Both the position numbers and the translations under genes were made by a program. Source: Geosiphon pyriformis uo1 (lineage: Eukaryota > Fungi > Glomeromycota). From it: 64,000 nucleotides of DNA. Below, piece by piece: positions 16,319 to 57,999 of this stretch. The notes under the pieces were generated by a model, which worked only from the letters and a program-made list of their open reading frames with translations, searched no databases and was not told the origin of the DNA. The DNA is taken from the NCBI GenBank assembly GCA_016748015.1, contig JAAOMT010000134.1, positions 1,618,757 through 1,682,756 of the forward strand, written 5' to 3'. Every line of letters starts with the position of its first letter. The first letter of the stretch is position 1.

Positions 16319-18551
16319 TGTTATACTGCTATTACAGATGATTATTTGGGGTTTGAAAACAAATAACAAACCCATAACTTGGTACTCAATAGCCAATAAT
16401 ATAGATGTAAATAATATTTGAAGGTTTTTAGAATCTAAAGGTTTTGGTTGAGTTCTTTGTATAATAGACAAAGATTCGATAGATGTATTTTTTGATAATG
16501 TTCTTAGTGTTTTATCAATCCTTGAGTTAATGTGCTTGTTTTGTCCATTATTTTCCAAAATATTTATATTCTATCAATTTCTTTCTCAGCTTGATGGCTT
16601 GTAATCTTCTGGTAAGCTATTTTCAATTTTAAGTGTTTACCCTTATTTCTGGGTTTTTTACCAGTACTATATCCTAATATTAGTACTCTGCATGTTAATA
16701 TTTTAATCAATTAATAAATCCACAATAAAACAAAAAAAAAGAAAAAGAAATAAAAAAAATAATAAAAATAATGAAAAAAAAAATAAAGAGATAAGCCAAG
16801 ACAAAAAAAAGTTAGTATTCTGTTAATAGCCATAATCAAGAGTTATTGGTTTAGTATAGTTAAGTATTGGTAACTATTAACATGAATTGTTAATAGTAAA
16901 AAGATGAATTGTGATATGTAATAAGTATTTTATTAATATTTTATGTTTCCACTTCAAGTTATAGAATACTATTGTATAAAAGGATGAATAGAGAATTGGA
17001 ACTGAAGATTCTAACTAAAGATTCTGTCTTTTTTGCTTTTAATACTACTTCTATATATACATAAATTTTGTTAAACAAGATTCCTTGAATTTCTTAATTC
17101 TCTAGCCAGAAATTCTGTAATTTTTTGAGAGGAATCCTAGAATTCTGGAATTCTGTAATTCCTTATACTGGGATCCTGTAATTCTGGAATCCTGCAATTT
17201 TTCTGAGAAAAATTCTGGAATTCCACTTTTACTATGTCTTATTTTGATTGGCTAATTTGTGTACTAATATATAATTCTTATATTCTATGAGTAACACTAT
17301 GTAAGGAATTGCAAAATTTTAGAATTTCAGAATTTCAGAAATTCCAGAATTCCTGGCTAGAAAATTGAGAAATTCAAAAAACCTCAAACAATAAAATTTA
17401 TGTATATATAGCAGTAGTATTAGAAGCAAAAAAAACAGAATTCTTAGTTTAGAATCTTTAATTCCAATTCTATATCTATTTTTTTATATGATAGTATTTT
17501 ATGACTTAAAGTAAAAACATTAAATATCAATAAAATACTTATTTATTATCACAATTCATCTTTCTATTATTAACAATTTATGTTGATAATTGCCAATACT
17601 TTATTATACTGAACCAATAACTTTTAATTACAGTTATTAATAAGATACTAATTTTTTCTTGCCTTGACTTATTTCTTTATTTTTATTTATTTTATTTATT
17701 GTTTTTATTGTTTATTGTGTACTAATTAATTTGAAAGATTAAGCATTAATTAATTAATGTCATAAATAGTCTGATAAAAAACTCCAAAAAAAGAGTATCA
17801 AGTTTAAAAAATTTATGGATAAGCTTATCAAAAAGCACAATTGCCAGAATAAACTGACCATCATGCTAAAGACAAAAATTGGATGGAATTGTAATTCTAA
17901 AAGACTACTAAAACAACACTTGAATCTCTGTTTATTATACAAAAAACTTAACAAAAACTTTTAGACACTAAAATCTTCAGATATTACTAACCAGATCAGC
18001 TATTAAGCACTAAGTTATGAGTTTGTTATTTGTATTAACATCTTAAATAATTACTTGTAACATTTAGTGCTCTCTGTAAAGTATAATCTTATAGAGAACC
18101 AGTATTAACAACAACTATTCAAAAGTGACAGAATCAGAAAGAAAAAAAACAAAATATCTAAGATTTACTAAATCCTTATTTCAACACTACTGTTAACACT
18201 TGGAATTAATCAACAACCAACTATTAATGAAATTAGTCTTTAATTTTTATGTCAATAAAAGAATTAAATATTTCTTAGGAGAATCAATAAATATTGAATC
18301 AGCAAGAGGAAATTTTTATAATAAATTAATTCAATATACCAGCTTACTATTAAACTATAACTTTAATCCAATCATTATTAAAATCAACAGAGAAATTGAA
18401 AATCACACTCAACAAACATTTTCTATTATCTATGCAGAAAAAAGCAAAGAAAAACTACAAACACCAGTAGAAACTCTAAAACAAATATAATTACCTACTT
18501 GGAAAAAACAAAGAATTGATTTACCAGTTAATCTATTATATTATCACATGC
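16319..18551 (+). mobile_element. Family A element A0, 5' fragment: LTR (16319-16329 + 17297-18062), PBS, start of ORF1
   Basis: LTR ends TTGTAACA at 18062, then TT-TAGTGCTCTCTGTAA (decayed PBS), AAAA-GTG at 18125 and homology to ORF 24870 (FNFYVNKRI..KLQTP). The 5' LTR boundary at 16319 is less certain. Confidence 0.75.
16330..17296 (-). mobile_element. Family A solo LTR
   Basis: Ends TATTACAG... and ...TGAGTAACA; GGAATTCC-type repeats; flanks CTGC/CTAT (decayed 4-bp TSD). Confidence 0.85.
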
Positions 18552-18663
18552 TATTACTTATAGAATATAGGAAATATATTAGCATATAAATTAACCAATC
18601 AGAAGTAGCCATAGTAAATGTGAAATTTCAGGATTCCTCTTAAAAGAATTACAAGATTCTCAT
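18552..18663 (+). mobile_element. 5' part of another family A LTR, interrupted by A1
   Basis: TATTACTTATAGAATATAGG matches the family A LTR start; it stops at the A1 terminus. Confidence 0.8.
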
Positions 18664-19487
18664 TGTTACAGGTGATTATTTGGGGTCTCAAGTCAAATAA
18701 CAAACCCATAACTTGGTGCTTGATTGGTATTTTCTGGTGTTGATATTTGAAGGTTTTGGTATAGAGTTCTTTGTATAATGAACAGAGATTTAATAGTTGT
18801 GTTATCCATAGCTTTTCAAAACCACAGTTTCATCAATTTTTTTCTCAGCATAATGGCCAGTATTTTTCCTGGTAAGCTATCCTTAATTAAATGTTCTATC
18901 CTTATTTCTAGGTCTTTTTCCAGTCACTTTGATGTCAGTAACTCTGTGTATTATTTTCTTTAATCAATTAGTACACAACAATAAAACCAAAGAAAAGAAA
19001 TAAAAAAAAGAAAATAAAAAAATAAGCCAAGGCAATTTGCAAGTTAGTATCTCATTAATAGCCATAATCAAGAGCTATTGTTCCAGTGTGGTTAAGTATT
19101 AATTGCTATTAACATGAAGTGTTGATAATAATGAGTAAGATTGAGATAGAGACTAATTATTTATTAATAGTTGTGAATAAAAGATTGCTTAGATTAAATT
19201 TAAACTGGGTGGTCTGTCTTTTCTACTTCTAATACTACCACTATATATACATAATTAAGATTCCTCAATTCTTTATACCAGAAATCTTGGAATTTCTGAA
19301 ATTCTGCAATTCCTTTTGAGAGAAATCCTGGAATTCTGGAATTCTGCAATTCTTTGTATGAGAATCCTGAAATTCTTGGAATTTTGCAATTCCTCTTAAG
19401 AGGAATTTTAGAATTCCACATTTACTATGACTACTTCTGATTGGCTAATTTATATGCTAATATACTTCCTATATTTTATAAGTAATA
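18664..19487 (-). repeat. A1 3' LTR (PPT at 19488-19503)
   Basis: TGTTACAGGTG...AGTAATA termini; adjacent purine tract on the minus strand. Confidence 0.88.
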
Positions 19488-19501: not shown

Positions 19502-20140
19502 TTAATATTGAGCACCATCGAGATCTTTTAAATCTCCTAACTCTAATTCTCTGTTGTTGAGTATTTCTTAAACTTTTTTTTCGAGAATTACTTGGGTTAT
19601 TTTGTTCTGTAATTCTTCAAATTGGGTGTTGGTTATTTTTCCTATTTGGTTAACTATAATAGAGTCCAATTCTGGATTAAGTAAGATTTCTGGTTTGTCT
19701 TGGAATCCTGTATGTAGCTAATAGATGGCTCTTGCTTGTGTCATCAAATTGTTTTTTCCCACAAATTGTTCCAGTTGTTGCAGTATTGTTGTATCAAATA
19801 ATCATTTTGTTTTATTCATATATAAGTTCTGAATATTCAAGTATTGTCCTAAGTAAAAATAACAAAAATTTCTTGGAAATTCATGTATTCATCATTTCCA
19901 AGTTTCCTTGGTCAATTCTTGATATGTGGTGACATTTGTTGGTTCTTCTATTGCTAATTTTATTTTCAGAACCATTTTATTAATAGTGTTTTTTGTTTTC
20001 TTTTGACTTTTGTATTTGGGTATCTTTCTGGTATTTCGGTATCAAATGGTTTATTAATTGATAGTAATTTCTATATTCTGTTGTTAAATCAATTGGAAGA
20101 GTTGTTGTGCTAATGAGTGAATGTTGTCAGTGATTTTTAT
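19502..20140 (-). pseudogene. A1 ORF3 (unknown ~212 aa protein)
   Basis: Homolog of 46116-46745. Start decayed to ATA; ends DGAQY-TAA; 639 nt. Confidence 0.75.
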
Positions 20141-23944: not shown

Positions 23945-24810
23945 TGTTACTCATAGAAATATAGGGAATATATATTAGCATAGTTATTAACCAATCAAAA
24001 GTAGACGTAGTAAAATGTAGAATTCCAGGATTTCTCTCAGGAATTGCAGGATTCCAGAAATTACAGGATTTTTACAAGGAATCGCAGGATTCCAGAATTC
24101 CAGGATTCCTCTCAAAGGAATTGCAGGATTCCAGGAATTCCAGGATTCCTGTTGTGAAGAATTGAGGAATTGAGGAATCTCAATTATGTATATATAGCAG
24201 TAGGATTAGAAGCTAAAAAAACAGATCTTTTAGTTTAGATTTCATCTAAACAACTTTCCAAAACACAAATAAATAACTGTTTGTTATCTCAAACTCACTA
24301 CCACTATCAACACTTCATGTTGATAGTAATTGATACTTAACCCCACTAGAATAATAGCTCTTGATTATGGCTATTGATGGAATACTAACTTGTAAATCAC
24401 CTTGGCTTATTTTTTTTCTTTTTTTATTTTCTTTTCTTTTTTTTATTTTTTTGCTTTGATTTTATTGTTGTTTACTAACTCTATTGAGGATTAATGTGCA
24501 GAGTATTGATGTCAGGATAAACGTGACTGGTAAAAGACCCAGAAATAAGGGTAGAACACTGAATTGAGGATAGCTTACCAGGAAGAATACCTCAAGCTGA
24601 AAAAAAAATTGATGAAACTGCAGTTTTGGGAAGCTACAGATAAAACTATTACCATTGAATCTTTGTCCATTATACAAAAAACTTAACCAAACTCTTCAGA
24701 TACAAACCTTCAGACACAAACCTTCAGATCACTATTAACTGCAACTAGATTTGAGCACCAAGTTACGAGTTTGTTATTTAATCTAACATCAGAAATAGTC
24801 ACCTGTAATA
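23945..24810 (+). repeat. A2 5' LTR
   Basis: TGTTACTCATAG...CCTGTAATA; GGAATTCC/GGATTCC array, TATATATA near 24189, T-rich tract. Confidence 0.92.
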
Positions 24811-26521: not shown

Positions 26522-27554
26522 TGTTACCAGTAGAATTTTAGCTATTAATTAGTAGGAAAATTACCCTTATAATTCCTATAATTAATTAGTATATTAATAT
26601 TATTTCAAATTATCATTTATTATTTAATCAATTATCACATATCACAATTCAATTAAATAATCCAATTAGTATAATAAAAAGTAGGATGATCAAATTACAC
26701 AATACCCTGAACTTTGTAACATTCTAAAATTCACCGAAATTTACAGAAATTTGCCAAAATTTATAAGAAATTCACCAAAATTTATAGAAATTCACCAAAA
26801 TTATGAATAGTTCACCCAAATTAATTAATAGTTCAGCAAAATAACTTGTAGTTTATCAAAATGTATCTTTAGTTTACTGAAATTTGAGCAAAGAGAAAAA
26901 GTGCAAGTTCATAGACTAGTACTACAACAAGTTGTATAAAAAAAGAGCTTTTTTCTTCAAGAAAATATATTTTCTCATAGTACCTTACCATAGTATCTTA
27001 CTTTAAATATCTTAATTGAAACAAATTACCTTTTACAAAATCAAATAAAAATTAAATATTTGAAACCCAAATTCTTAAATTATTACACTTGAAATTCTCT
27101 CAACACATCTAACGTTTTGAAATTGATTAGCTACCAATTTCAATAAACTGTTAGTGACTTCAGGCCTAAATAGAAAACGTTTTCCTTGATAAAATCCTAT
27201 TTTTTTTACATTTTTTTTTTTTTTATTTTTTTTTCTTATTACAATCATTAGGGTAGCCTACAGACAAGATTCTTGTAGAAGAGTTAACTTTCACAGCAAA
27301 ATAACTACACATTTTTAGTAAGCTTCTAGATGAGCAATTCCTGGGAAAGAGTTGATGTTTACTACAACATAACTACATAAAATAACTGGCAAGAAATTGG
27401 CCATTCCACTTATAAGCCCAGCAGTTTAAATTATAGGAGATAATTTGAAGATAAATTCAGTTATTGGAGGTTCAATTACTTCTAAAAAACGTGAATTTGC
27501 AACCAACAGACAGTTACAACATTCAAGAAAAGAGACCAAAAACCTCCAATAACA
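26522..27554 (+). repeat. B1 5' LTR
   Basis: TGTTACCAG...CAATAACA; colinear with 35500-36524. Confidence 0.93.
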
Positions 27555-27556
27555 TT

Positions 27557-27572
27557 TGGTGCTCTCCCATGG
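27557..27572 (+). promoter_or_regulatory. Primer binding site (family B)
   Basis: TGGTGCTCTCCCATGG. Homologs at 57014 (minus) and 61903. Confidence 0.85.
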
Positions 27573-27599: not shown

Positions 27600-30500
27600 G
27601 TGGCAACCACACCAGACACAGCAACTCTAGAGTATTACCAGTCAATTTACACCCACTGCAAGCAAAAATTCAACATTCCAGACGGAATTGAAGTTGTCAA
27701 GAAATCAGTATACCAATATATTGAAAACTACATCAACAATTATCTTTTTGGAAACTACAACATTTCAGAAGTTAGAAGCAATCTTTACAATAATTTAGTG
27801 CACTATTCACGATTAGGAACAGAAGACCTGAACAGTGAAACACTTGCTACTTACTTCCAAAAACTTAATTTTAACATTATTGAGTATTGTGAAAAAAAAT
27901 ACCCAGTACAGTCTCAATACTCTATTAACTTTGAATCAGAGACAGAAACAAGCAACAAAGGCAAACAAAGATTGAAGCAATACTTAAGAACCACTCCAAA
28001 CACTCCAATACTACAAAAGACAACTGCCAAACACTTGCAAACACCTAAACAAAGAACCAGTGTCAAATTACCAGTTTCTATTACATCATTTCCAATTTCA
28101 CTTGTTTAACCACAAATACCAAATTCACCACTCAACCACTTCTCCAAACTAGAAGATTTTCAGTTACCTAGAAACCTTATTCAACAGCAGGAACCAATAT
28201 CAACAAGTGCCAATATTATTGATTACTTACAGGAAAACGAAAGTAATCATTCAGAAAGCTTGGAAAGTGAAGAAACTGAATCAGAACCAGAAAAAATTAC
28301 AGAAAATGAAGAAGAAATGGCAACTGCTTACATTGCAAAAATCCCAGAATTTACTGGTGAAGACAATGATACCAGTCCTCAAGAATGGCTTGACAAAGTT
28401 CAAAAAGCAGGAGATGCAAATGGTTGGATCACAGCAAGAATGCTCAAAACAATTCCCTACTTTCTCCAAGAAACAGCAGAAGAATGGTTTGAAAATTTAA
28501 AAGAACCATTTGAAAACTGGCAAGCATTCAAAGATGCTTTTCTACAACAATTCACCAATAACAATACCTCTATTACTCTCAGAAACCACTTTTGCAATAT
28601 CAAATAAGAAACATCTGAAACTATTATGACCTATCTTGGAAGATTTAACAAACTTCTCAAATAAATCTGACAATTGGAAACCAATGACTACTATTCTAAT
28701 GCTCAAATTCTGGATCAGTTTATAGCAAGATTAAAAAACAAACTGATTAAGAAAGTTTATCTACATGCTCCAGCAGACTTAGCAACTGCTATTAGACATG
28801 CAAAGAGCTATGAAATGGCAATGGAAAAAGCAAATCACACCAAGCTTGTAAACCTTGCAATTGAAGAAACCAGTTCAGCAGCTAAAGAAAAGATAGACCA
28901 ACTTACAAAAAAGCTTGAAAGCTACTTCACAAACCAACAACAATAGCAACAACAACCACAAAGATATCAACCCTTACAATGACACAACCAAAACAATTTT
29001 GGATCACTATCCAACAACCAACCTCAAAATTGTCATTATTGTGGAATTCCAGGACACTGGAAATGAGATTGTAGGAAATTACAAAGAGACCAACAAAACA
29101 GAAGTAATCAATGTTACTCTTTACTACAACAATCTTATTACCAATCTCCACTACCAACCTATTATTTACCAAGACCACAAAATCAAAACAGTTACTATTC
29201 ACCAGCTCCACAACCAATGCAGCAACAATATCAGCAATCTTTACCAATTCAGTCATATTAGACACTACCCACTCAACAATATCAAGTACCAGCAAGAAGA
29301 TTGGTTCAACATAACCAATTCATATCCCAAAATCAATTGCAGAGTAACAACAACAGAATCAATCCAAATAACCAGTTGGTTCCCCGAAATTCTGGTCAGC
29401 AAAGACCCAATTACTATCACACTCAACCCAGTTATCTTACAATACCAGAGGAATCGGATTTTTAACAAACTGCACTTTCTGAAGATGAAGTTGCAGTACC
29501 AAGATCAAATCCTTCCAATCATACCATTCCACCAGCTCAAATTGCCCAAAATGCCAATCTGTCAGATATATTTCCATTTGAATTTGAAGCAAATAATTCA
29601 CCATTTCTGCTTAGTAATGCCGCAGTCAATAAACAGAAAGCAATTACTGCTATGTACACAGAAGCTATAGTAGAAGGAAAACTCATTCACTTAATCTTAG
29701 ATAGTGGATTGGCTCAAAGTATCATCACTTACCAGTTAATGCAACAACTCAAATAAAATGTAGACAAACCAGTTCAAACAGTTATTGTCACAGTTGATGA
29801 TATAAAAAAGACTCCAGTAAGAGAAATTAATGATTTCCCCTTTACAATTAATGGAATCACCATTCTAGTTAAAGTTCTTATTATAGATGCACACCAATAC
29901 CAAGCTCTAGTCAGAAATAATTGACTTCTCAAGGCCAATGCAAACCTGAACTGGGAAACTCAAGAACTTAAAATCTTATATCAAGAACAATATACCATAG
30001 TACCTGCAATCTGTGGTACCTTTAACAAATGATCAGAAAAAGCTCCAGTATTTGAATTTGAAGAAAAGAAGGAAATGCCACTCACTGAAACCTATATGGC
30101 TCTTGGATTACCATCCAATTGGGCTGAGGAAACAGAACAAGAGATTTTTGAAGAATTAAGAGAATGGAAGAAAGTTAGATATTCTACACCAGAACCATGA
30201 AAAAAACCACCATACATTCTACTAAAATGCAAAGATTGCAAAAAGAAGCTTTTATCTATGGGAGCCTGTATTTCTCCAAAAGAGGAATACAAAACTCGCA
30301 CTTGTTACTTCTACAAGGCATGCCATAGAAAACGATTTGGATTTCCAAAGAGAAGTAGAAAATGGGACAAAACTTCTTGCCTTACTTGTAGAAAAATGCT
30401 ACCAGAAGAATGCAACTGGATTGATGTAGCAATGAGAGGAGGAGTATGTAATCAGATCTGTCAATATGCTTTATCAATTTCGGAAAAAGTCAGAAAAGGA

Positions 30501-33224
30501 ACACCATTTGATGCAGCATACAACAGTGCTCTCAATAAACTTTATCACTACTCTCATGATGCTGAAATGATTTTTGACCTAGCAATGGCATTGATCAATG
30601 GAGCCACCCAAAAAGATGTCCACCAAATGAAAGAAGCTGAATATATTAAGTATACCATAGAATTAGCTGAATTTGATTATGAAAATGAAGTAGAAACCTA
30701 CCACCAAATTGCAAGCCATACATATCCAACCAAAGAAGCTCAAATTCAATGATTAGAGCAAATGAATATTCAATTGTGTGAAGAATGTATTATGCCTTGT
30801 GATGACCAATGGTGTTTAGAATGTTATGCTCTTAGCATTCCTCTGCCAGATGAGAATAATGAAAATGAAATCGAATTTGGAGTATCTGAACTAGTAGAAA
30901 AACTACCAACCACCTCCATCTATCTTCTTGAAAAGCAACCATCTCTACAACTTAAATATTTTGACAACTATGGCCAAGGAATTAGACCAAAAAAAGCACA
31001 CAAAATTGATGCTGGATATGATCTAAGATACCCAGGAAAAGATACTTTGGTTCTTCAACCAAAGTCCTTAACAAAAATCAATCTCAAAATTGCTCTTGAA
31101 ATTCCACCAGGAGCAATGGTTCAAATTGCCTCCAGATCATCATTGGCAAGCAAAGAAATCAATATTAGAGGAGGAGTTATAGATGCAGAATACACTGGAG
31201 ACATTACCATTATGTTACAGAATGAGACAGACAAACCATTCAAAATTGAACATGCTGAAAAAATTGCTCAAGCAATTTACTTACCCTTAATCAACATTTC
31301 GGGTTTACAATCAGTAAACAACAAAGAACAATTGGGAAAAAGTAAAAAAGGAACTCAAGGTTTTGGTTCAACTGGATGATTTACAGTTTCAGTAAACATA
31401 GCTCTTAATACACAAAATGAATCTTACCAGATTCTTCAACTTCTTCAGCCAATTACCATTTTACCTTTTGGAAAACATCACGAAATTTACACTTGCTCAA
31501 AACCCACCACTACACAACAAATCTTTGAATCCAATAAACAAATCTGTTTAAAGCATGAAATCTCAATTCTAAACATTTATATTCCCAAAGGAATGAAAAA
31601 ATTTCGAGTTACATTCTACAATCCCAATAATTACCCTATTGTCTTATTAAACAAACTAGAGATTAGAATCATACACAGCAATATTTTTTAAGATGAAAAC
31701 CCTCAAATTGTCTCTAATTTCATCGAAATTGTAAGGCACACTCTACTTCCAAATCCAAATATCATTCCCATTACTGAAAACTACCACTTTTTGGAAGAAA
31801 AACTCTTTCAAATCAACATGGATTTCTTAGAACCTCAACAATAAAGACAATTGAAACAATTGATAACTGAATTTGCAGATATATTTGCAAAAGACAACAA
31901 TGACCTGGAAAAAACAGATATTGTTCAACATCAGATCCATATAGGAGATGCTCTACCAAAATGTCAACAAGCTTATCGAATGCCACTTGCCAGCCACCAA
32001 TTCATCAGAGAAGAAGTCCAAAGAATGCTCAATAATGGATTGATTCAACCATCAAGAAGTTCTTGGGCCTCACCAGTGGTTTTAGTTAAAAAAAAAAATG
32101 AAAAAATTAGATTCTGTGTTGATTATAAACAACTAAATAGTGTTACAATTGGAGATGCCTACCCTCTTCCAAAAATTGATGACATGCTAAATGCTCTAGG
32201 AAAAGCCAAGTTCTTCTCAACTTAAGACTTGGAAAGTGGATACTGGCAAGTCAAAATGGATCCAAAAGATAGACCCAAAACAGCATTCATCACTTAAGGA
32301 GGAAACTATGAATTCAATGTTATGCCTTTTGAACTCTGCAATGTATCAACAACATTTCAGTAACTCATGGATGTTGTATATAAAGGGCTCTTATGGCAAT
32401 CAGTAGTTGTCTATTTTGATGATACTGATGTATACTCACCAAGCTTTGAAGCCCATCTCATTCACCTGCAAGAAGTTTTTCAATGATTATGGAAAGCAAG
32501 ATTAAAGTTAAACATTGAGAAATGTTACTTTGGAAAAACAAGCTTGATCTTTTTTGGACACATATTTAGTAAAAATGGAGTCAAACCAAATCCAGGAACA
32601 ATCAGTGATGTCAAAAACTTTCAAACCTCCAGAAATACCACAGAACTAAGAGGATTTGTAGAACTAGCCTCTTACTATCAGAAATTCATAAAAGGATTCT
32701 CAGAAATTGCCAAACCACTCAATTATCTTACCAACAAAAACGTGCCATACAAATGGACTAAAGAACAGCAAAAAGCTTTTAAAACTCTTAAAACAAAATT
32801 GACAACAGCCCCAGTTCTTGCTTACTCAGACTTCAACAAACAGTTCCAATTAGCCATTGATGCTTTACACATAGTATTTGGTGCTATTTTATCACAAGTA
32901 GATGAAAATGGGCAAGAACAAGTCATTGCTTATGCTAGTAGAACACTCAAACCAACAAAACTAAAATATGGCTCAACTGAATTAGAAGCTGCCACAGTTA
33001 TTTGGGCTCTTAAACATTTTCAACAATATCTGAAAAATAGAAAAGAATTTGACATAATAATGGACAACATTGGCCTCAAATGGCTCAATAAAAAGAAAAC
33101 TGAACAAAGTGCCAAACAGTCTCAATGGAATGACTTCCTAGCAGATTACAGATATATTGTACACCACAAACCAGGAAAACTACATACCAATGTTGATAGC
33201 CTTTCAAGAATGAGACAAAATTAA
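27600..33224 (+). pseudogene. B1 ORF1: N-domain-Gag-PR-Cys-rich-dUTPase-RT-RNase H in one frame (1874 codons, point stops)
   Basis: Fragments at 27600, 28260, 28674, 30258, 30762, 31851 and 32544 share one frame. CHYCGIPGHWK.DC, LILDSG, DAGYDLRY/IASRSS/GFGSTG, YFDD, NVDSLSR. Confidence 0.92.
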
Positions 33225-33281
33225 TACCAACAACAATTCTATCACAACTTACCAACTTACCAACAAAATGACCAAACAAGA

Positions 33282-34667
33282 ATGGATCTCAGAAATTACA
33301 ACAATCTTAAAAATTATTTGGAAACTCTTACCATGCCAGAAAACTGGTCTCCAAGTGAAAAACATTGTTTACAACACCAATTAAAACAATATTTCATACA
33401 CCAGAACAAAATTGATTATAAAAATCACAGAAACCCAAACCAACCACTCAGATTAGTACAAGAAAATGAAAAAGAAACAATTTTATACAACATGCACACA
33501 GATCCGTTTTCAGCACACTTGGGAAGAGATGGAACAATTCAAAGAACCCTTGAACATTATTTTTGGTCTCACATGCAAAAAAACATTCAACAATATATAG
33601 AATCTTGTGATAGTTGTTAAAGCAGAGAAAGAATTTGCTCCACAGAACCTTTAAATCCAATCAAAGTTGGACAACTTTTTAACAGAGTTGGAATTGATTT
33701 AGTCGGACCATTACCTATTACAACCCAAGAAAATTGCTATATTGCAGTAGCAGTAGATTATCTTACCAAATGGCCTGAAGCTAAAGCCATCCAAAGAGCA
33801 GATACAAAATTAGTAGCAAATTTCATCTATGAAGACATTATTTGTAGACATGGATGTCCAATTGAACTTTTATCTAATCAAGGAACACATTTTGTGAACA
33901 ACTTGATACAAGAAATTTGTGAATGGTTCAATGTTAAAAAACCTCTATTATTACCTTATCACCCTTAAACAAATAAACTTATAGAACGTTTCAACAGAAC
34001 ATTGTGTGAATCTTTAGCCAAAGTCTCAACAGACTTTGAGCAGGAATAGGATATCTTTATTCCATCAGTGTTACTAGCATACAGAATGCTAAAACAAGAT
34101 ACTACAAAACACACACCATTTGATCTTACTTATGGGAGGACAGCAACATTACCAATTAATTTCACAGTGGAAACATATCCAGTGCAACCAATCAATGAAG
34201 AAAACTTTCAAGAAACACTCCAAAGAAGGGCCTACACTCTTCTTAGTACACTGGAAGGAAAAAGAAGAATAGCAGCAACTTATATTGAACATTCCCAAGC
34301 TCAACAAAAAAAAAGACATGACAACAAATTACCACTTATTACCAACAAATTTAAAGTTGGAAATAAAGTTTTTTTATACAGAACTAAGACTGAAAAACAA
34401 TGGAGTGAGAAATTTGAAAACAAATAGGATGGACCATTTTATATTCACGAAATTCTAGGCAATAGATCATACAAGTTAAGACTTGATGACAAAATACTAA
34501 CAAAAGTTGTACATGGAGACAGATTGAAACACTATCATTCCAGAAACAATCCTGAACCATTAATTCCACAAATTAGTACACATTCTCTTTTAATTAATCC
34601 TGAAGATATTTCCCAAAATTTAGAACCAATAATTATAATAGAACAACAACCAAACTTGAACACTTAA
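33282..34667 (+). pseudogene. B1 integrase ORF
   Basis: ATG 33282; MH..AHLG..CDSC, VGIDLVGP, ERFNRTL, DGPF; TAA 34665-67. No chromodomain evident. Confidence 0.9.
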
Positions 34668-34811
34668 ATTTTACAATAATTCTCTAATAAAAACACAAAG
34701 ACAAAAATAGTAAATAAATTACAAAAACACCCAAACCCAAAAACAAATAAAAACTCCATATCCAAAAATAATTTTCTTTATTTTCTCTTTTCACAATTAG
34801 TCAATTTTATC

Positions 34812-35519
34812 ATAATTATTTCCCGAAATATTTAACAAATATCCCAAAAGTTAATATTAGCCTTGAAAACACTTCCTGACTTATCCATAACAATTAATGG
34901 AAGTCAAATTAATTACATTCAGAAAAAAACCACAGTCCCAGTAGCAAATCATTCACAGAACTATCACCTCTATAGAAGAAAAACAAGAAGTCACTCTGAA
35001 AATAAGTTACCAAGACTTTTGAAGCAAGCACTGGAAGAAAATCTTTTAATTGTCCCTATTGACATTTCACCAAATGCTACAATGCAACAAAAACTTCTAC
35101 TACTTTTTAATGAACAGAACAATGAACACACTCCTATCTATAAATACTTTCACATTGGAAAGACACTTTATGAACAAAAACTGGAACTTGAAGCAACAAA
35201 TCTCACTCTTGAAGCTATACAAAAGCAAATTCATAATGAATTCAAAACAGCAGCTGGATCAACAAATACTTGCTACAAACTTAAAGCAGCTTTTAGACTC
35301 TATAATTTGTTTAATACTTGTGAAAATGTTCTACAAAATCCAATACTGCAACCAATGAAAGTCCAATACATTGGCAAACTTACAGAACTGAAATTTCAAC
35401 AATTTTCAGACCAAATTACTTCAATTATTTTGGATCACTATCTCAATATTACAAATAGTGTTTGGATTTTGATGGAGCTCAGTCTTGAGAAGAAGATTAT
35501 GTTACCAGTAAAATTTTAG
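34812..35519 (+). pseudogene. B1 ORF3 (unknown ~235 aa protein)
   Basis: 218-aa open portion in the track. Start inferred from the B2 homolog (ATG at 49812; ATA here). Reads through the PPT into the 3' LTR. Confidence 0.78.
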
Positions 35520-36524
35520 CTATTAATTAGCAGAAAAATTACCCTTATAATTCTTATAATTAATTAGTATATTAATATCATTTCAAATTATCATTTATTA
35601 TTTAATCAATTATCACATATCACAATTCAATTAAATAATCCAATTAGTATAATAAAAAGTAGAATAATCAAATTACACAATACTCTGAACTTTGTAACAT
35701 TCTAAAATTTGCCGAAATTTACAGAAATTCGCCAAAATTTTAAGAAATTCACCAAAATTTATAGAAATTTGCCAAAATTATGAATAATTCACCCAAATTA
35801 ATCAATAGTTCAGTGAAATAACTTGTAGTTCATCAAAATGTATCTTTAGTTCACCGAAATTTGAGCAAAGAGAAAAAGTGCAAGTTCATAGACTAGTACT
35901 ACAACAAGTTGTATAAAAGAAAAGCTTTTCTCTTTAAGAAAATGTATCTTTTTATAGTACCTTATCATAGTATCTTACTTTAGATATCTTAATTAAAACA
36001 AATTATCTTTTACAAAATTAAATAAAAATTAAATATTTGAAAACCAAATTCTTAAATTATTATACTTGAAATTCCCTCAACACAACCAATGTCTTGAAAT
36101 TGATTAGCTACCAATTTTAATAAACTGTTAGTAACTCCAGGCCTGGATAGAAAACGTTTTCCTTGATAAAATTCTATTTTTTTTACATTTTTTTTTTTTT
36201 TTTTCTTATTACAATCATTAGGGTAGCCTACAGACAAGATTCCTGTAGAAGAGTTGACTTTCACAGCAAAATAACTACACATTTTTAGTAAGCTTTCAGA
36301 CAAACAATTCTTGGAAAAGAATTAACATTTATTACAATGTAACTACATAAAGTAACTGGCAAAGAATTGGTCATTCCACTTATAAGCCCAGCAGTTCAAA
36401 TTATAGGAGATAATTTGAAGATAAATTCAGTTATTGGAGGTTCAACTACTTTTAGAAAACGTGAATTTGCAACCAACAGACAGTTACAACATTCAAAAAA
36501 AGAGACCAAAAACCTCCGGTAACA
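35500..36524 (+). repeat. B1 3' LTR
   Basis: TGTTACCAG...CCGGTAACA. Confidence 0.93.
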
Positions 36525-37466
36525 ATGTAATAATTCAGAAGACACAAATTGTTTCCCAAATCAATTGTGGCCATCATCCTACACTAATCAGTCACAACAG
36601 CCAAAGATGCATGTCTGCCACAACTGTGGTAAACAAGGTCACATTAGAGCCAACTGTCAATTTTATAACAATAATCCATGATTGGGAAATCAATATTGAA
36701 ACCCTGATTGCAGATTTCAGACTCAGAATTACTACCCAAATTAAGACCAATATCAAACCACTTACTTGCCAATAACGCAGCAATTAATCTATCAACTGCC
36801 AATATATCAACTTCCAATTTATCAACTGCAGCCACTGGTAATTTATCAGCCCCAACAACCAATTCAAACACCACTCCAAAACCCCACTCAAATGACATCA
36901 GGAAACCCAAGACCTAGAATCACTCAAAACTGGAGATCAGTGATGGTTGTTCATCAACTGATCCCCAGCTCCTCTCACCAACTATCAGGCTCTTGACAGT
37001 GGAATCTGAGTACTGGTTCCATCCAAAACCCGAATTTCCAGAACTATTTAAGTCTCCTGGTAACCCCAGAAGACACCCAATCCAATCATCCAGAAAACAA
37101 CCAACAACCACTACTCATCAGCAACATTCTACCAACAACAGTCACCAAAAACAAAACTCTTACTGCCATCTTTCCTTTCAAATTAGAGGAAACCATCAAC
37201 CCACCATTGTTCAGTGGAGCAGTACTTGAGGAAAAACCCATCATTGCGATGTACACTGATGCAAAAGTTAATGATCACCCCATCAAATTGATCCTAAATA
37301 GTGGATCAGCTGGCAGCATCATCACAAGACAACTCATGGATTAATTAGGTCACCAAGTTGATCACACTGCCAGTACAAGAATTATTACTGCTAATGGAAC
37401 TACCAAAACTCCAATTAGCAAAATAGATAACTTCTCTATCAAAGTTAATGGCATCACAATACTCAT

Positions 37467-38339
37467 TGTTACTCATAGAAATATAGGAAATATATTAGTA
37501 TGATTATTAGCCAATCAGAAGTAAGCGTAGTAAATGTGGAATTTCAGGATTTCTCTTAGGAATTGCAGGATTCCAGGAATTTCAGAATTCCCCAACGAGG
37601 AATCGCAGGATTCCAGAATTCCAGGATTCCTCTCAAAAGAATCGCAGGATTCTAGAAATTCCAGAATTCCCATCGTGAAAAATTAAGGAATTGAAAAATC
37701 TCAAATATGTATATATAGCAGTAATGATAGAAACAGAAAAGACAGAATTGATACCACAGAATTCTTAGCCTAAAAACAAAATCATCAAATAAATAATTAT
37801 TTTATATCTCAATCTACTCTCTACTATCAATACTTCATGTTAATAGTAATTGATATTTAATCACACTGGAACAATAGCTCTTGATCATGGCTATTGACGA
37901 AATACTAACGTACCAAATTGCCTTGGCTTATTTTCTCTATTTTCTTTATTTTATTTTCTTTATTTTATTTTCTTTCTTTTTTTTGATTTTGTTATTGTAT
38001 ACTAATTGATTAAAAGATTAAGCACTAAGTTATTGACATCAAGGATAGCCTAGTAAAAGACCCAGAAATAAGAGTAGGATTTTATATATTATCAGATAAC
38101 TTACCAGAAAGGCATGACTGCCAGACTAAATCCGGCCACCACGCTGAGAAAGAAATTGGGAAAACTCTTGAAAAAATACATCTACTATTGACACTATTGA
38201 ATCTCTGTTCATTATACAAAGGACTCCAACAAAACCTTCAGATACAACACTTGCAGAACCTCATCCATGGAAAAAGCTTTTGAGCACCAAGTTACAGGTT
38301 TGTTATTTAATTCAACAGCAGAAATAATCACCTGTAACA
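37467..38339 (+). repeat. A3 5' LTR (different subfamily from the A2 LTRs)
   Basis: TGTTACTCATAG...CCTGTAACA followed by a PBS. The post-TATA and 3' segments differ from the 23945/46759 LTRs. Confidence 0.9.
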
Positions 38340-38401
38340 TTTAGTGCTCCCTGTGAGATATAATCCTACAGAGAACCAGCGCCAACAAACATCATCCAAA
38401 A

Positions 38402-41400
38402 GTGGCAGAATCAGAAAATATAGGAGCAAACCATTTAGGATTTGCAAAATTTTTATTTCAACACTATTGTCAATACTTGAGATTAAATCACAATCATATA
38501 TCTGCTGAATCAGTCTTTAATTTTTATGTCAACAAAAAGATTTTCTCTTTATTAGGAACACCAGTGAATACTGAATCAGCAAGAGAAACTTTCTATAGGG
38601 AGTTAATTCAAAACACCAACCTGCCAACAAATCATAATTTCACATCCATCATTATTAAGATCAACAAAGAAATTGAACACCACACTCAATAAAAATATCC
38701 AATTACACTAATAAAGGCAAGAGAAAACTACAAACACCAGCAGTAATACCCAGAAAAATACAACCACCTACTTGGAAGAAAAACAGAATTGAATTCCCAA
38801 GCAACTCATCCTACCACTATACACCTGGAAGTGCCATCAACATATCATCAACAGACATGTTCCCATTAACTGTGACATCAGCATTTGAACAATTTTCATT
38901 CCAAAGTAAACAAAGGAAAACAGAATTATTAGGACCATATGGCGAATACTTTGAGGGATTTAATTCACAATCATCAACCCCATTAGGACTTTGATCACCA
39001 CTGCCTCCACCAGATTTTGGAATCTCTGATCTGTGGGAAGCAGCAGAATCAGAAAAAGAGGAAGAAGAATCAGAGGATCAAGAATTTGCTTACTAGCACC
39101 CAATCACTAAAAACCCGGAAGTTGAAACCATGAATTTTCAAACTCAGCAAAATCTAAATCTAGAAAATTTGGAAATCAAAACTCCAAATCATCAAAGGCA
39201 GAACAATCCAAACCCCGAATTAATTAATCAGCAAAACTTACCTCTGGTAATCATCATCAATCAACTGCCAATTAATCCCATAGCTGAACTTATATAACAG
39301 TCACTTCAACTACCACCCCAACAACCAGTACAACAACAACTGCTTCAATAGCCACCACAATCACCTAACTTAGATCCAATGGCCTACGCACCAATCGCAA
39401 AACTTGACAACTTTACTGGTGAAGAGAATGATGCTCAAGTATGGCTGAATAATATAGAAAAGGCCATCACAGCCAACGGATGGAATGACGCCCAAACAAT
39501 GCAAGCTATTCCCTATTTTCTCAAGAATACCGCCAATTCATGGTATCAGAGCTTGGTTAATAAACCACAAGATTTCAATGCCTTCAAAGCAGAATTTCTA
39601 AGATACTTCAACAACAATAACAGCATCAATCACCTAGTCAATACATTCACCACTATGAAACAAGGAGAAACTAAAGTAGTCACCACTTACCTGGGACGCT
39701 TCTATTAAAACCTGCACCAAATTCAAGTAATTGATGCCAACTATTTCACAGCCCCACAGATACTCAACCAGTTTATCTGTGGTCTGTGCAGCAGCATCTT
39801 GCAACATGTATGTCTGTTGCATCCAGGCACTTTTCAGGATGCAGTCACATGTGCCAGAAATTTTGAATCTGCTGAGTCAGAGGCTAATCATGCCCAAGCC
39901 ATTAATCTAGTAATGAATGGATCATCTGAATTGGATTCCAAATTTGAGAAGTTCAGTGAATCAATTAATAAGAGATTGGAAAGATACTTAGCTGACAATC
40001 ATGCCATTTATCAGCCTCCACAATGACACAATAATCAAGGAAACTCTAATCATGCCCAAAATCAACCACGTCTATCTTCATTGACCAATCAACAGTGGCA
40101 ACAGGAAACGCGTATCTGCCACTATTGTGGTAAACAAGAACATATCCAAATTGACTGTCACCAGCATTTAAATAACCAACAATTGGGAAATCAATATCGA
40201 AACCCTGATCGCCAGTTCTCAACTCTGAATTATCAATCAAACTCAACACAATATCAAACTACTTACCTGCCAATGATGCAGCAATCAATTTATCAGCCAC
40301 CAGTATATTAAGCTCCAATTTATTAACCAACAGCCCCAATTTATCAGCCACAGCCACAGGTAATGTATCAACTGCAACCACTAACAATCTATCAACCCCA
40401 AACAATTCAGATCCCGTCACAAAACTTACTGATCAGCAGAGTCCAAAGGCCGAGAATTATACAGCAAAACTGGAAATTGTCAATGGTAGTTTATCAGCTG
40501 ATCCCCAGCTTCTTTAGTTAAACAGGATCTCATCAATAGAATTCGGGTGCTAGGAATTCCCAAAACCCAAATTCCCAGAACTATTTAAGTTTTCTGGTTA
40601 CCTCAGAAGACACTTCACCCAGCAATCAGAAACCCACCCAAAAACAAACACATACCAGCAATATTCTGCCAGCAACAGTTACCAACAACAAATCACTGAA
40701 TGCTATCTTTCCATTTGAACTTAAGGAACCATCAACCACGCCATTATTTAGTGGAGCCGCACTAGAAGAAAAGCCAAATACCATTATGTACACTGATGCA
40801 AAAATTGATGGCCATCACATCAAACTAATTCTTGACAGTGGTTCAGCAGGCAGCATCATCACACGACAATTCATGGATCAATTAGGTTGCCGAGTTAATC
40901 GAGCTGCTAGCGCCAGAATCATCATGGCTGATGGAGCGACCAAGACTCCAATTGGTGAAATCGATGACTTACCAATCGAAATTAATAGCATCATAGTACC
41001 AATCAAAGTACTTGTTATGGAAGCCACCCAATACCAAGCTCTAGTTGGTAATGACTGGCTGTCCAAAACGAATGCCACTCTGAACTGGAATACACAAGAG
41101 CTCCAACTCAGCCAGAACAGGCAACACACGTGAGTACCAGCCATGTGTGGCCACTTCAAGACTACCAACACCATGGCACTACTAATCGACTTCGAGGAAG
41201 AAAAACAAAAACCTACCTGGGAAGCCTACCAAGTATTATGGGCTGATGAAGAGCACAATGAGCTGCTGCCAATACTCTCTTGGAATGACAACAGGAAAGA
41301 AAAGCAAACAAATGAACTTACCTGGGAAACTGACAATCTGACTTAGATTGACAACAAATAGGAAGAATCATTGAGTTGAGAGTGGAAAAAAAAAAAGGGA

Positions 41401-46115: not shown

Positions 46116-46745
46116 ATGGAAATTACAGACAACATTTACTTACTAACACAACAACTCTTTCAGTTAATCCAACACCAGGAAATGAAGATTACAATCAATC
46201 AACAAACCATTCGATATCAAGATATTAGAAAGACATTGCAACCCAAAACACAGAAGAAAACTGAAAATATGGTGGACAAAATCATTGTGAAAGTAAAATT
46301 AGCAATAAGAGAGTTGACAAAAGAGGCACTATATCAAGAGTTGATTAAAGAAACTTGGAATTAGTGGATACAACAATTTCTAAGAAACTATTGTTATTTT
46401 TACTTAGAACAACACATAAATATCCAGAATCTATATACGGATAAAACAAAGCAATTATTTGACACAAGAATACTACCACAATTAGAACATTTTGTGAGAA
46501 AGAACAACTTATCTACACAGGCCTGAGCCATATACTGAATACACACAGCATTTCAGAATCAACCAGAAATTTTACTCAACAAAACAATAGATATGATTAC
46601 CAGTAATCAATTAGGAAAGATCACTAATGCTCAATTTGAAAAATTACAGACTCAAATAACACAAGTAATTCTCGAAAATAAAATTCAGGAAATACTTTAA
46701 GAAGGGGAAATAACAGAGTTAGATTTTGATAGAGCTCAATATTAA
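46116..46745 (+). pseudogene. A3/A2 ORF3 (unknown ~209 aa protein)
   Basis: AAAAAA-ATG-G start; ends DRAQY-TAA at the PPT AAAAGGAAGGAA; 630 nt. Confidence 0.8.
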
Positions 46746-46758
46746 AAGGAAGGAATAA

Positions 46759-47629
46759 TATTACTCATAGAAATATAGGAAATATATATTAGCATAGTTA
46801 TTAACCAATCAGAAGTAGATATAGTAAAATGTGGAATTCCAGGATTCCTTTTAGGAATTGCAGGATTCCAAGAATTACTGGATTCTTACAAAGAATCACA
46901 GGATTCCAGAATTCCAGGATTCCTCTCAAAGAAATTGCAGGATTCCAGAAATCCCAGGATTCCTGTTATGAAGAATTGAGGAATTGAAGAATCTCAATTA
47001 TGTATATATAGCAGTAGGATTAGAAGCTAAAAAAACAGACCTCTCAGTTTAGATTTCATTTAAACAACTTTCCAAACCACAAATAAATAACTGTTTGTTA
47101 TCTCAAACTTGCTGCCACTATCAATACTTTATGTTAATAGTAATTCATACTTAACCTCACTGAAACAATAGCTCTTGATCACAGCTATTGACAAAATACT
47201 AACTTGTAAATTGCCTTGGCTTATTTCTTTTCTTTCTTTATTTTCTTTTCTTTTCTTTATTTTTTTGCTTTGATTTTATTGTTGTTTACTAACTCTATTG
47301 AGGATTAATGCACGGGGTACTGACATTAGGATAAATGTGACTGGTAAAAGACCCAGAAATAAGAGTAGAACACTCAATTAAGGATAGCTTACCAGGAAGA
47401 ATACCAGCCATCAAGCTGAGAAAAAAATTGACAAAACTGCAGTTTCGGAAAGCTACGGATAAAACTATTACCATTGAATCTCTGTCTATTATACAAAGAA
47501 CTCAACCAAACCCTTTAGATACAAACCTTCAGACACAAACCTTTAGATCACTATCAACTGCAACTAGATTTGAGCACCAAGTTACAGGTTTGTTATTTAA
47601 TCCAACACCAGAAATAGTCATCTGTAACA
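46759..47629 (+). repeat. 3' LTR matching the A2 5' LTR
   Basis: TATTACTCATAG...CTGTAACA; colinear with 23945-24810. Confidence 0.92.
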
Positions 47630-49093
47630 CCATTGTTATTTTGAGCAAAGCTGAAATCATTGTTTTCATCATCATCATTGTTGGAGTTTAAATTAAAATT
47701 GAAAATTGATTCTAATTCTGATACACAGTTGTTGATTGGCTCGTTTTCCTTTGAAATTGTGTAAATTATGCATGGTGGTAGATTGTAGATGAGATTATAC
47801 TCATTACAATACTGGAAGTCACATGGGATCAAACAATAGTCACATAATCAGGTGTTTATTTCTTCCAAGCACTGTTTCTGTTCTTTTCTGGTTGGTGCCA
47901 AATTTTGATAGTGCTCATGAAATTTTTTTGGGCCTGTTTCCAGGTCCAGGAAAGCATTTGGATTGGGAATCAGAACAATGTTGACTGGTTCCAGAGAGTT
48001 GTTCTTGATTTCCAATATTTTACTGGACATGGCACTTTCTACTTTGGTGTTTACCATTTGCCAGATCTTGTCTTTGTCATGTAGGTAACTGTTCAAATAA
48101 GAGATTGCTCAGTGTTAGGCAGCAGTAATAAGCATTCTATGATATTACTGGAGGTTTTTGGTCTCTTTTCTTGAATGTTGTAACTGTCTGTTGGTTGCAA
48201 ATTCACGTTTTCTAGAAATAGTTGAACCTCCAATAACTGAATTTATCTTTAAATTATCTTCTATAATTTGAATTGCTGGGCTTATAAGTGGAATGGCCAA
48301 TTCTGTGCCAGTTACTTTGTGTAGTTATGTTGTAGTAAACGTCAACTCTTTCTCAGGAATTGCTCATCTGGCAGCTCACTAAAAATGTGTAGTTACTTTG
48401 TTGTGAAAGTCAACTTTTTTACAGAAATCTTGTCTGTAGACTACCCTAATGATTATAATAAGAAAATAAAAGAAAGAAAATAAAAGAAATGTAAAAGAAA
48501 TAGAATTCTGTCAAGGAAAACGTTTTCTATTCAGGCCTGGAGTCACTAACAGTTTACTGAAATTGGTAGCTAATCAATTTCAAACTGTTTAGTAGGAATT
48601 GGTTAATTTCAAAAGAGAAATAATTAAAAATTTGATTTTTTGAATTATTTGATATTTATTTCGTTTTTGTGTGTAAAAAATAATTCTAATTGTTAAATCT
48701 GAAGTAAGATATATTTTCTCGAAGAAAAAAGCTTTTCTTTTATACAACTTGTTGTAACACTATTCCATGAACTTGAACTTTGCTTTTTTTCTACAATTTT
48801 GCTGAACTAAAAATACATTTTGGTAAACTACAAGTTATTTCTGCAAACTATTAGATATTTCAGTGAACTATCAATTATTTCAGCAAATTTCTACAAATTT
48901 TGGCGAACTTTTGAATGTTACATATTTCAGGGTATTGCATGATTGATCATTGCACTTAGGTTACATTTGTGTTATGTACAAATTGGGTTATTAATTAAAT
49001 GATAATTTCAGACATTTTGCTAATGTAATAAGTAATAATTTGAAACGATAATATATGCTAATTAATGATAAAATTTATAAGAGTAATTTCATG

Positions 49094-49812
49094 CTAAACA
49101 ATATCTCTAATTTTGTCTGATAATATAACCTTCTTCTCAAGACTGAGTTCTGTCGAAGTCTAAGTACTGTCTGTAATTTCCAGATAATAATCCAAAATTA
49201 TTGAAGAAATTTGGTCTGAAAATTGTTAAAATTTCAGTTCTGTGAGCTTTCCAATATATTGAATCTTCAAAGACTGTAAAATTGGGTTTTGTAGGACGTT
49301 TTCACAGATGTGGAATAGGTCATAGAGTTTAAGAGCAGCTTTTAGTTTATAATAACTGTTTGTAAGTCCAGCTGTTGTCTTAAATTCATTGTGGAGTTGT
49401 TTCCAAATAACTTCTTTTGTGATGTTTGCTGCTGTAAGCTCCCATTTTCATTCATGAAGTGTTTTTTCAATGTAGAAATATCTATATATTGGAGTATAGT
49501 TATAGTTTTTTTCATTAAGACACAGTTGAAGTTTTTGTTGAATAGTAGCATTTGGTGGAATACTAATAAGAGTGAGCATTAAGTTTTCTTTTAAAACAAG
49601 CTTTAAAAGTTTTGGCAGGTAAATTCCAGAATAACTTCTTGTATTTTTCTTATATGGGTGATATTTTTGTGAATTTGGGGCTAAATTTGTAACTACTTCT
49701 GTTTGAGTATAATTAAGTGGTTTTCAGTAACAGTAATGGATAATTTGGGTATTGTTTTTAAAGCTAACATTAGTTTTTGGAATAATTGTTGAATGTTTTG
49801 AGGAATAGTCAT
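49094..49812 (-). pseudogene. B2 ORF3
   Basis: MTIPQNIQQLFQKLMLALKTIPKLSITV..., homologous to B1 ORF3; stops inside the LTR; one apparent frameshift. Confidence 0.75.
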
Positions 49813-56970: not shown

Positions 56971-57999
56971 TTTTGAAGTTGTTGTTGCTGTGTTATTTCT
57001 GTGGGAGAGCACCAAATGTTACTGGAGGTTTTTGGTCTCTTTTCTTGAATGTTATAACTGTCTGTTGGTTGCAAATTCACATTTTCTAGAAGTAGTTGAA
57101 CCTCTAATAACTGAATTTATCTTTAAATTATCTTCTATAATTTAAATTGCTGGGCTTATAAGTGGAATGGCCAATTCTGTGCCAGTTACTTTGTGTAGTT
57201 ATGTTGTAGTAAATGTCAACTCTTTCCCAGGAATTGCTCATCTGGCAGCTCACTAAAAATGTGTAGTTACTTTGCTGTGAAAGTCAACTCTTTTACAAAA
57301 ATCTTGTCTGTAGACTACCCTAATGATTATAATAAGAAAATAAAAGAAAGAAAATAAAAGAAATGTAAAAAAAATAGAATTCTGTCAAGGAAAACGTTTT
57401 CTATCCAGGCCTGAAGTTACTAACAGTTTACTGAAATTGGTAGCTAATCAATTTCAAACTATTTAGTAGAAATTGGTTAATTTCAAAAGGAAAATAATTA
57501 AAAATTTGATTTTTTGAATTATTTGATATTTATTTTGTTTTTGTGTGTAAAAGATAATTCTAATTGTTAAATCTGAAGTAAGATATATTTTCTCGAAGAA
57601 AAAAGCTCTTCTTTTATACAACTTGTTGTAACACTATTCCATGAACTTGAACTTTGCTTTTTTTCTACAATTTTGCTGAACTAAAGATACATTTTGGTAA
57701 ACTACAAGTTATTTCTGCGAACTATTAGATATTTCGGTGAACTATCAATTATTTCAGCAAATTTCTACAAATTTTGGCGAACTTTTGAATGTTACATATT
57801 TCGGGGTATTGCATGATTGATCATTGCACTTAGGTTACATTTGTGTTATATACAAATTGGATTATTAATTAAATGATAATTTCAGACATTTTGCTAATAT
57901 AATAAGTGATAATTTGAAACAATAATATATACTAATTAATGATAAAATTTATAAGGGTAATTTCATGCTAAACAATATCTCTAATTTCATCTGGTAACA

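Follow-up and report, generated by a model that had tools for sequence, protein, structure and literature searches.

The window, a 64,000-nt stretch of the Geosiphon pyriformis genome (contig JAAOMT010000134.1), is filled from about 16.3 kb onward by a nest of LTR retrotransposons; the fungal genes next to it are ordinary ones (dynein light intermediate chain, MIT domain). Self-comparison of the window separated two lineages, A and B, with two pol-containing copies each. The elements carry gag, protease, dUTPase, reverse transcriptase (RT), RNase H and integrase in that order, followed by a further reading frame, ORF3. The Pfam families found in them are Retrotrans_gag/Ty3_capsid, aspartic protease, RVT_1, Integrase_H2C2 and rve, and the region that we take to be RNase H was assigned by its likeness to L001, an independent metagenome element, and by known motifs. 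The LTRs begin with TGTTAC, end with GTAACA or a decayed form of it, and are flanked by target duplications of 4 bp. By their domain content and order, together with paired LTRs, target-site duplications (TSD), primer binding site (PBS) and polypurine tract (PPT), these elements are Ty3/Gypsy LTR retrotransposons with a dUTPase. A PBS-like sequence, TGGTGCTC/TAGTGCTC, is common to A and B (window 27555-27570 and 38340-38355). The elements are nested (window 18664-64000): the minus-strand element A2 contains an A element (23945-47629), which in turn contains B1, and B2 and B3 are likewise inserted in A2. The A element at 23945-47629, whose LTR at 46759-47629 finds its best partner in the LTR at 23945-24810 (90.9%), also contains an extra A-type LTR and a second gag-protease (37467-41300); a partner LTR is absent, and this part may be a recombinant. 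More diverged A-like LTR fragments occupy 16330-18540, some of them forming an inverted repeat (16332-17716 vs 18060-16745).

Table 1. Positions of ORF3 copies, neighboring pol regions, LTRs and insertion sites within the window.
Feature	Position	Strand	Remarks
ORF3 of B1	34812..35519	+	Pseudogene; open at 34836-35519; last 20 nt within 3′ LTR
ORF3 of B2	49094..49812	-	One frameshift near 49725, 3 stops
ORF3 of A1	46116..46745	+	209 codons, 4 stops; ends just 5′ of polypurine tract
ORF3 of A2	19502..20140	-	ATA start, 9 stops
dUTPase domain of B1 pol	30762..31379	+	Pfam PF00692, E 9.5e-24
End of RT and RNase H region, B1 pol	32442..33218	+	
Integrase of B1 pol up to pol stop	33270..34667	+	4 internal stops
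Spacer from pol stop to ORF3 in B1	34668..34811	+	144 nt, A/C-rich then U-rich
Polypurine tract of B1	35487..35496	+	Read through by ORF3 tail
B1 5′ LTR	26522..27554	+	TGTTAC...ATAACA; TSD ATGT; then PBS-like TGGTGCTC
B1 3′ LTR	35500..36524	+	92.9% identity to B1 5′ LTR
B1 U3 tandem array	35704..35800	+	Period 20/40 bp; candidate binding site (inferred)
A-type 3′ LTR behind A1 ORF3	46759..47629	+	38-40-bp U3 array
B2 3′ LTR	48143..49123	-	96.3% to 5′ LTR at 57017-57999
A2 3′ LTR	18664..19487	-	
Insertion-site flanks	26518-26521/36525-36528, 23941-23944/47630-47633, 37463-37466		
Insertion-site flanks	60886-60889, 48139-48142/58000-58003, 18660-18663		

In each of the window's four elements with a pol region, ORF3 is located between the integrase and the 3′ LTR, and a family profile run over the six frames of the window returned exactly four copies, each directly after an integrase (Table 1). 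The initial annotation had described a conserved ORF3 at four 3′ ends; the gene is present at all four according to the family profile, but none of the four is an intact ORF. The B1 copy has ATA at the positions of the homologues' Met1 and Met15, TAA as codon 8 and its first in-frame ATG at 35082. The pol regions of the same elements bear stops too, at a similar rate. The open stretch of B1 nevertheless amounts to 227 codons against a maximum of 139 in 2000 shuffles, and is thus longer than expected by chance. The peptides quoted in the initial annotation occur in the window, with the correction that MTIPQNIQQLFQKL belongs to B2 and not to 34812-35519.

Selection on ORF3 was assessed by the Nei-Gojobori method, which gave a dN/dS of 0.18 for B1-B2 (95% CI 0.08-0.29) and 0.19 for A1-A2 (0.11-0.34), compared with 0.30 and 0.16 for two stretches of integrase. 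The other reading frames of ORF3 gave values of 0.49-1.72, with the exception of the antisense frame whose third positions coincide with those of ORF3 (0.26, 0.29), and the excess of changes in ORF3 sits at third positions. When only transversions were counted, which C-to-T decay cannot produce, there were 14 at 66 four-fold sites vs 23 at 415 second positions, and the selection signal is therefore older than the C-to-T decay of the window copies. ORF3 is a genuine gene under purifying selection as strong as that on integrase, and the non-neutral evolution for which a dN/dS check had been suggested was borne out, with values of about 0.2 and confidence intervals well below 1.

The A and B versions of ORF3 matched each other in BLASTP (26% over 100 aa, E 5e-8) and in hhalign (84%, 181 columns, N-terminus included); these alignments mark them as homologous along most of their length, in agreement with the likeness noted initially. 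The B copy has 201 homologues, of which the 120 listed are all G. pyriformis hypothetical proteins, as are 118/118 homologues of the A copy, with identities of up to 90%; 238 or more of the Geosiphon proteins annotated as 'hypothetical' (120 + 118 listed) are thus copies or fragments of ORF3. Intact copies exist, since 29 of the 120 listed B homologues are full length from the first ATG, and another 35 are open from their second Met as far as the native end. A profile search over 1.84 billion representatives produced 113 matches at E<=0.001, 87 of them new, and 27 of these 87 were less than 55% identical to A or B. Ten new matches were looked up, seven coming from Geosiphon and three being metagenome proteins, and a further search added five more metagenome ORF3 proteins. 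In the metagenome element L001, RT-RNase H-integrase is followed, after a spacer of 316 nt, by an intact ORF3 of 230 aa, whose tail enters an LTR-like start, as in B. The L001 integrase has a single in-frame stop (1564-1566); the ORF3 and RT/RNase H part of this element contain none. Across lineages, identities are 23-31% for ORF3, 44-56% for RT/RH and 51-57% for integrase, a pattern that fits an ORF3 descending together with the element but changing faster than pol. In the Atlas, 24 of the 30 nearest clusters fell in one set without a common family, and the two displayed were Mucoromycota hypothetical proteins. The term 'orphan' used in the initial annotation is apt with respect to Pfam, PHROGs, PDB and BFVD; members of the family nevertheless number in the hundreds and are not confined to the annotation of a single genome. 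No description of ORF3 was found in the open-access papers searched.

We then considered what the ORF3 sequence says of its product. The Kyte-Doolittle maximum over 19 residues was 0.27-1.33 in 11/11 homologues from six lineages, by a hydropathy scan rather than a dedicated predictor; a signal-like N-terminus was absent in all 11, and cysteines numbered one to three. The scan agrees with the earlier statement that no signal peptide or transmembrane segment is visible, and by these sequence features, with neither a transmembrane nor a signal stretch, the ORF3 product is not Env. Likewise, Pfam, PDB-sequence profile and fold searches gave no confident match to an Env or movement protein; of the two refuting conditions named in the initial annotation, such a match and neutral evolution, neither occurred. 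A fusion-protein fold or family was not among the listed Pfam, Foldseek and VIA-align matches. The 30K movement proteins of plant viruses have a beta-rich core, which the ORF3 model does not share: its core is helical and its strands are limited to two short ones at the N-terminus. The basic patch that had been pointed out (YRRKTRS; PKTQKKT) is not conserved as written and sits in a low-confidence linker of the model; only Y-x-R/K-x-x-K recurs across lineages, and net charge ranges from -8 to +14, with three of the 11 homologues acidic (pI 5.2-5.9). Basic residues recur at 131, 143, 151, 155 and 182, and a conserved G-K-x-N loop is followed by a helix with R155, Y157 and F160; most conserved positions hold hydrophobic or aromatic residues. 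The DNA of the polypurine tract and of the LTR start determines the C-terminal tail, with B-like and A-like members using different frames. The tails ELSLEEEIMLP and DFDGAQY were rejected as functional motifs, since one stretch of DNA at the PPT/LTR start encodes both of them in two frames.

The spacers between pol and ORF3 measure 55 to 316 nt and do not keep frame. Read-through of the pol stop, which is in frame and stop-free in A1, was rejected as a general route to ORF3 because A2 and L001 do not keep the frame and stops block it in B1. A splice acceptor directly before the ORF3 start is likewise not conserved, being found as an AG after a U-rich tract in B1 and being absent in B2 and L001. 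As neither read-through nor an adjacent splice acceptor is conserved, ORF3 may be translated from a message that is spliced or starts internally, or by reinitiation on the A-rich spacer. With contigs from three runs of one sample (30,286, 6 and 0 records), no GT..AG joint was present among the 15 listed of 34, a count that is uninformative on expression or splicing.

An AlphaFold model from a 49-sequence alignment reached a mean pLDDT of 77, an earlier model from close B copies having reached 51, with nothing at Z >=5 in its fold search. The later model consists of an N-terminal module (residues 7-38; short helix-strand-strand, pLDDT 60-70), a disordered linker and a helical core of about 125 residues (pLDDT 83-95), which is the most conserved part of ORF3 (70% and 67% vs 47-60%). 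The ORF3 product is accordingly modelled, and predicted, to be a soluble, mostly helical protein. With this model Foldseek found nothing in PDB or BFVD at E<=0.001, and VIA-align had no match at Z 5 among 48,161 chains, a wide and a second look giving the same result; Z values under 8-13 are called common for helical models. Four of the 50 VIA-align rows listed, all below significance, were HTH domains of ParB type or Raf1, namely Spo0J (Z 4.0, rmsd 5.3, 91 aligned), the Raf1 N-domain (Z 4.0, rmsd 5.1, 88 aligned), KorB (Z 3.5, rmsd 4.8, 92 aligned) and ParB (Z 3.3, rmsd 3.1, 59 aligned). The Spo0J, Raf1 and KorB alignments cover model residues 78-209, and the Raf1 N-domain is grouped here with the ParB-type HTH domains. 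In Pfam the most frequent lead was DUF1016_N (PF17761; 8/41 and 6/49), always at residues ~105-175 and with B-type sequences only, the best score being 18.2 bits (E 0.0028) where the cut-off is 32.8. Clusters of DUF6192, DUF3102 and DUF1016_N appear in the Atlas at 0.83-0.88 (the DUF3102 lead at 0.83). Sub-threshold leads from three tools (VIA-align, Pfam and Atlas) thus converge on the same core segment and on HTH-like families. The HTH domains of ParB/Spo0J/KorB, DUF1016_N (the YhcG N-terminus) and DUF3102 overlap weakly with ORF3 over the whole core (Z 3.3-4.0) and resemble it in the order 'IG..L helix, helix, loop, R.Y..F helix'; no score reaches significance, and the eukaryotic retrotransposon context of ORF3 differs from that of ParB-type domains.

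Direct profile tests gave no confirmation of these leads. Hhalign aligned the core with YhcG-N at 3.3% over 61 columns, and the score of 18.9 was beaten by one of 100 block shuffles, with four more within 0.4; against DUF3102 (PF11300) it gave at most 1.1%, below the top shuffles, and the core profile missed the DUF3102 genes in the five genomes carrying them. The hhalign test is of low power, since YhcG-N and DUF3102 were not linked by it either (2.5%). The DUF3102 profile retrieved no ParB structures, and single DUF3102 members reached HTH_28 and KorB at E 0.09-0.18. The core profile matched in 0/12 bacterial genomes and in 2/401 at E<=0.01, which is chance level. Against PDB sequences the ORF3 profile had 0 matches and the core profile had three importin-5 rows at E 1.6. 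In PHROGs, phrog_23683 was hit by 18 of 49 sequences (best E 0.00038; B-type among the eight looked at singly), and its members were found in none of 5 + 201 genomes. Relatives of ORF3 were absent from the phage records and viral contigs searched, a ParB N-terminal domain was not detected in ORF3, and Pfam scans of ORF3 gave no sequence link to VANC. ORF3 is a member of no tested family and is without a confident sequence or fold match, and a ParB/KorB-like HTH core is a lead, not a result.

The LTRs that adjoin ORF3 carry tandem arrays. TRF found a U3 array of period 20/40 in 5/5 B LTRs and of period 38-40 in 4/4 A LTRs, and the L001 LTR has a weak period-20 array and three copies of a 9-mer. 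The array motifs counted, which were picked after seeing the sequences, are lineage-specific, and the B1 motif was not found in B2; the top 8-mer beat all 100 shuffles in 6/10 LTRs only. The same LTRs are heavily decayed. Between the members of three LTR pairs (26522-27554/35500-36524, 48143-49123/57017-57999, 23945-24810/46759-47629) there are 182 transitions vs 6 transversions, and C-to-T change affects every context (CG 61%, CC 26%, CA 22% and CT 15% of sites). The decay is broader than CpG alone and may reflect a RIP-like or all-context methylation process, and CpG observed/expected is 0.17 in the elements vs 0.84 in host genes. From this mutation spectrum we infer that the elements are under strong cytosine-directed attack. 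In Rhizophagus, a related fungus, elements carry CG methylation and small RNAs arise from Gypsy loci (10.1101/2021.03.30.436303).

Third reading frames at this position have precedents. LTR retrotransposons of bdelloid rotifers, several of them with a dUTPase, carry a non-Env third ORF in the env position (PMC5408684), so the gag-pol-ORF3 layout is already a known kind; the rotifer ORF3s are recognisable GDSL esterases, DEDDy exonucleases or membrane proteins, whereas the fungal ORF3 matches no family. Errantivirus-type Ty3/Gypsy elements with env (PMC13524379) share the layout and the 4-bp target duplication. Unlike errantivirus env, the ORF3 of the fungal elements lacks every Env feature tested. 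ORF3, selected at the level of integrase, forms a family without a confident match that is kept across lineages whose pol is only 44-57% alike. In retroviruses, foamy-virus Tas/Bel1 and other 3′ accessory genes are ORFs that adjoin or overlap U3, and Tas binds its own promoter. Foamy viruses also carry Env, and their likeness to ORF3 lies in position and layout.

As our preferred though tentative reading, possible although we hold it short of probable, we propose that ORF3 is a separate helical protein that binds the tandem arrays of its own LTR and thereby promotes transcription or shields the element from silencing. The lineage-specific LTR arrays and the heavy C-to-T decay would be compatible with such a self-binding regulator or anti-silencing role, and the idea of an LTR-binding transactivator or anti-silencing factor, raised initially, gains only circumstantial support, from the arrays, the decay and the sub-threshold HTH leads. 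For the other two roles put forward initially, reinitiation factor and integrase partner, no support emerged. ORF3 would be made as a protein of its own and enter nuclei, where its helical core, as a ParB/KorB-like HTH, would bind the phased U3 array; binding would favour transcription or resist silencing, as VANC does for VANDAL, and intact ORF3 copies could act in trans on broken ones such as the four in the window. VANC proteins of Arabidopsis VANDAL transposons are anti-silencing factors with tandem-repeat targets (PMC5735166; PMC12859917). The likeness lies in an element-encoded accessory protein combined with tandem repeats that vary from one related element to another in a host that methylates cytosine, and such variation of the repeats was found in A and B. 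VANDALs are, however, DNA transposons for which binding was shown, whereas the retrotransposon ORF3 would be a putative binder. On the other side, LTR arrays are probably common without an element-encoded binder, and the 10-bp-phased AAATT could just bend DNA. Should ORF3 bind these arrays, fungi would have a sequence-specific regulator encoded by a retrotransposon, how elements outrun cytosine silencing could be tested directly, and A, B and L001 would offer natural protein-array pairs.

A narrower form of this proposal, in which the env slot holds a ParB/KorB-type HTH, perhaps of bacterial or phage origin, that serves as a sequence-specific LTR-array transactivator or anti-silencer, is in our view rather unlikely. 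Were it true, the protein could act in trans through the shared cytoplasm of a multinucleate fungus, and this would help explain the ~41% LTR cover of the Geosiphon genome despite heavy cytosine attack (41.2% LTR, PMC11952901).

Array binding competes most closely with a protein-interaction adaptor of new helical fold, acting in translation or reinitiation, nuclear import or inhibition of host defence without specific nucleic-acid binding, which we regard as somewhat doubtful. The absence of a fold match suits such an adaptor, as do conserved positions that are mostly hydrophobic or aromatic and a charge that varies from acidic to basic; the convergence of three tools' weak leads on HTH-like families in the same core segment, and the five recurring basic residues, speak against it.

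An RNA-binding ORF3, captured from a filamentous virus, resembling a coat or nucleocapsid protein and coating element RNA or blunting small-RNA silencing, is unlikely. The closterovirus coat cluster (PF01785) was the best named Atlas match (0.92 and 0.91 for two queries ~26% alike) and is of similar length (198 aa), but the shared Atlas features were 150 and 138 of 256, where true members of a family typically share 170, the recognition value stayed below 2300, and the family was common to only 1/10 of the best named matches. PF01785 was also absent among the Pfam families listed (two scans: first 25), and no named coat protein was among the 50 BFVD rows listed (20 of them without names) or the PDB rows. 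In favour of such a protein, AM fungi produce small RNAs from Gypsy elements (10.1101/2021.03.30.436303), and there is precedent for viral gene capture at ORF3 (PMC5408684).

The 4-bp flanks of 6/6 independent insertion sites (Table 1) have a central CG, TG or CA, each with a background of 0.15, as would be expected if insertion were targeted to CpG-centred sites that later decayed. Together with the nesting of the elements in one another and the constant place of ORF3 after integrase, these flanks would accommodate an ORF3 acting as an integration-targeting partner, by which the integrase complex is tethered to CpG-centred sites or silenced chromatin. We consider this quite unlikely, as integrases reportedly set such sequence preference alone (ZAM, PMC2527525), ORF3 is set off from pol by a stop and spacers of varying frame, and it diverges far faster than integrase between lineages.

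A degenerate Env or movement protein, to which position between pol and the 3′ LTR alone points, is very improbable, being contradicted in 11/11 homologues by the missing transmembrane or signal-like stretch and the one to three cysteines, and further by the helical model and by Pfam and fold searches that found no such family. Neutral spacer DNA open by chance, as the four broken window copies might suggest, is refuted by the dN/dS, third-position and transversion results, by intact copies elsewhere and by the similar rate of stops in pol, and has a negligible probability.

Two other parts of these elements had no Pfam match. One is a long N-terminal gag region, at 61915-62457 (+) and at the corresponding start of B1 gag. 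The other is a Cys/His-rich stretch of B1 pol at 30258-30752 (+), between protease and dUTPase, with a related stretch on the minus strand in B2 (inverted match); it is possible that this represents a new zinc-binding domain.
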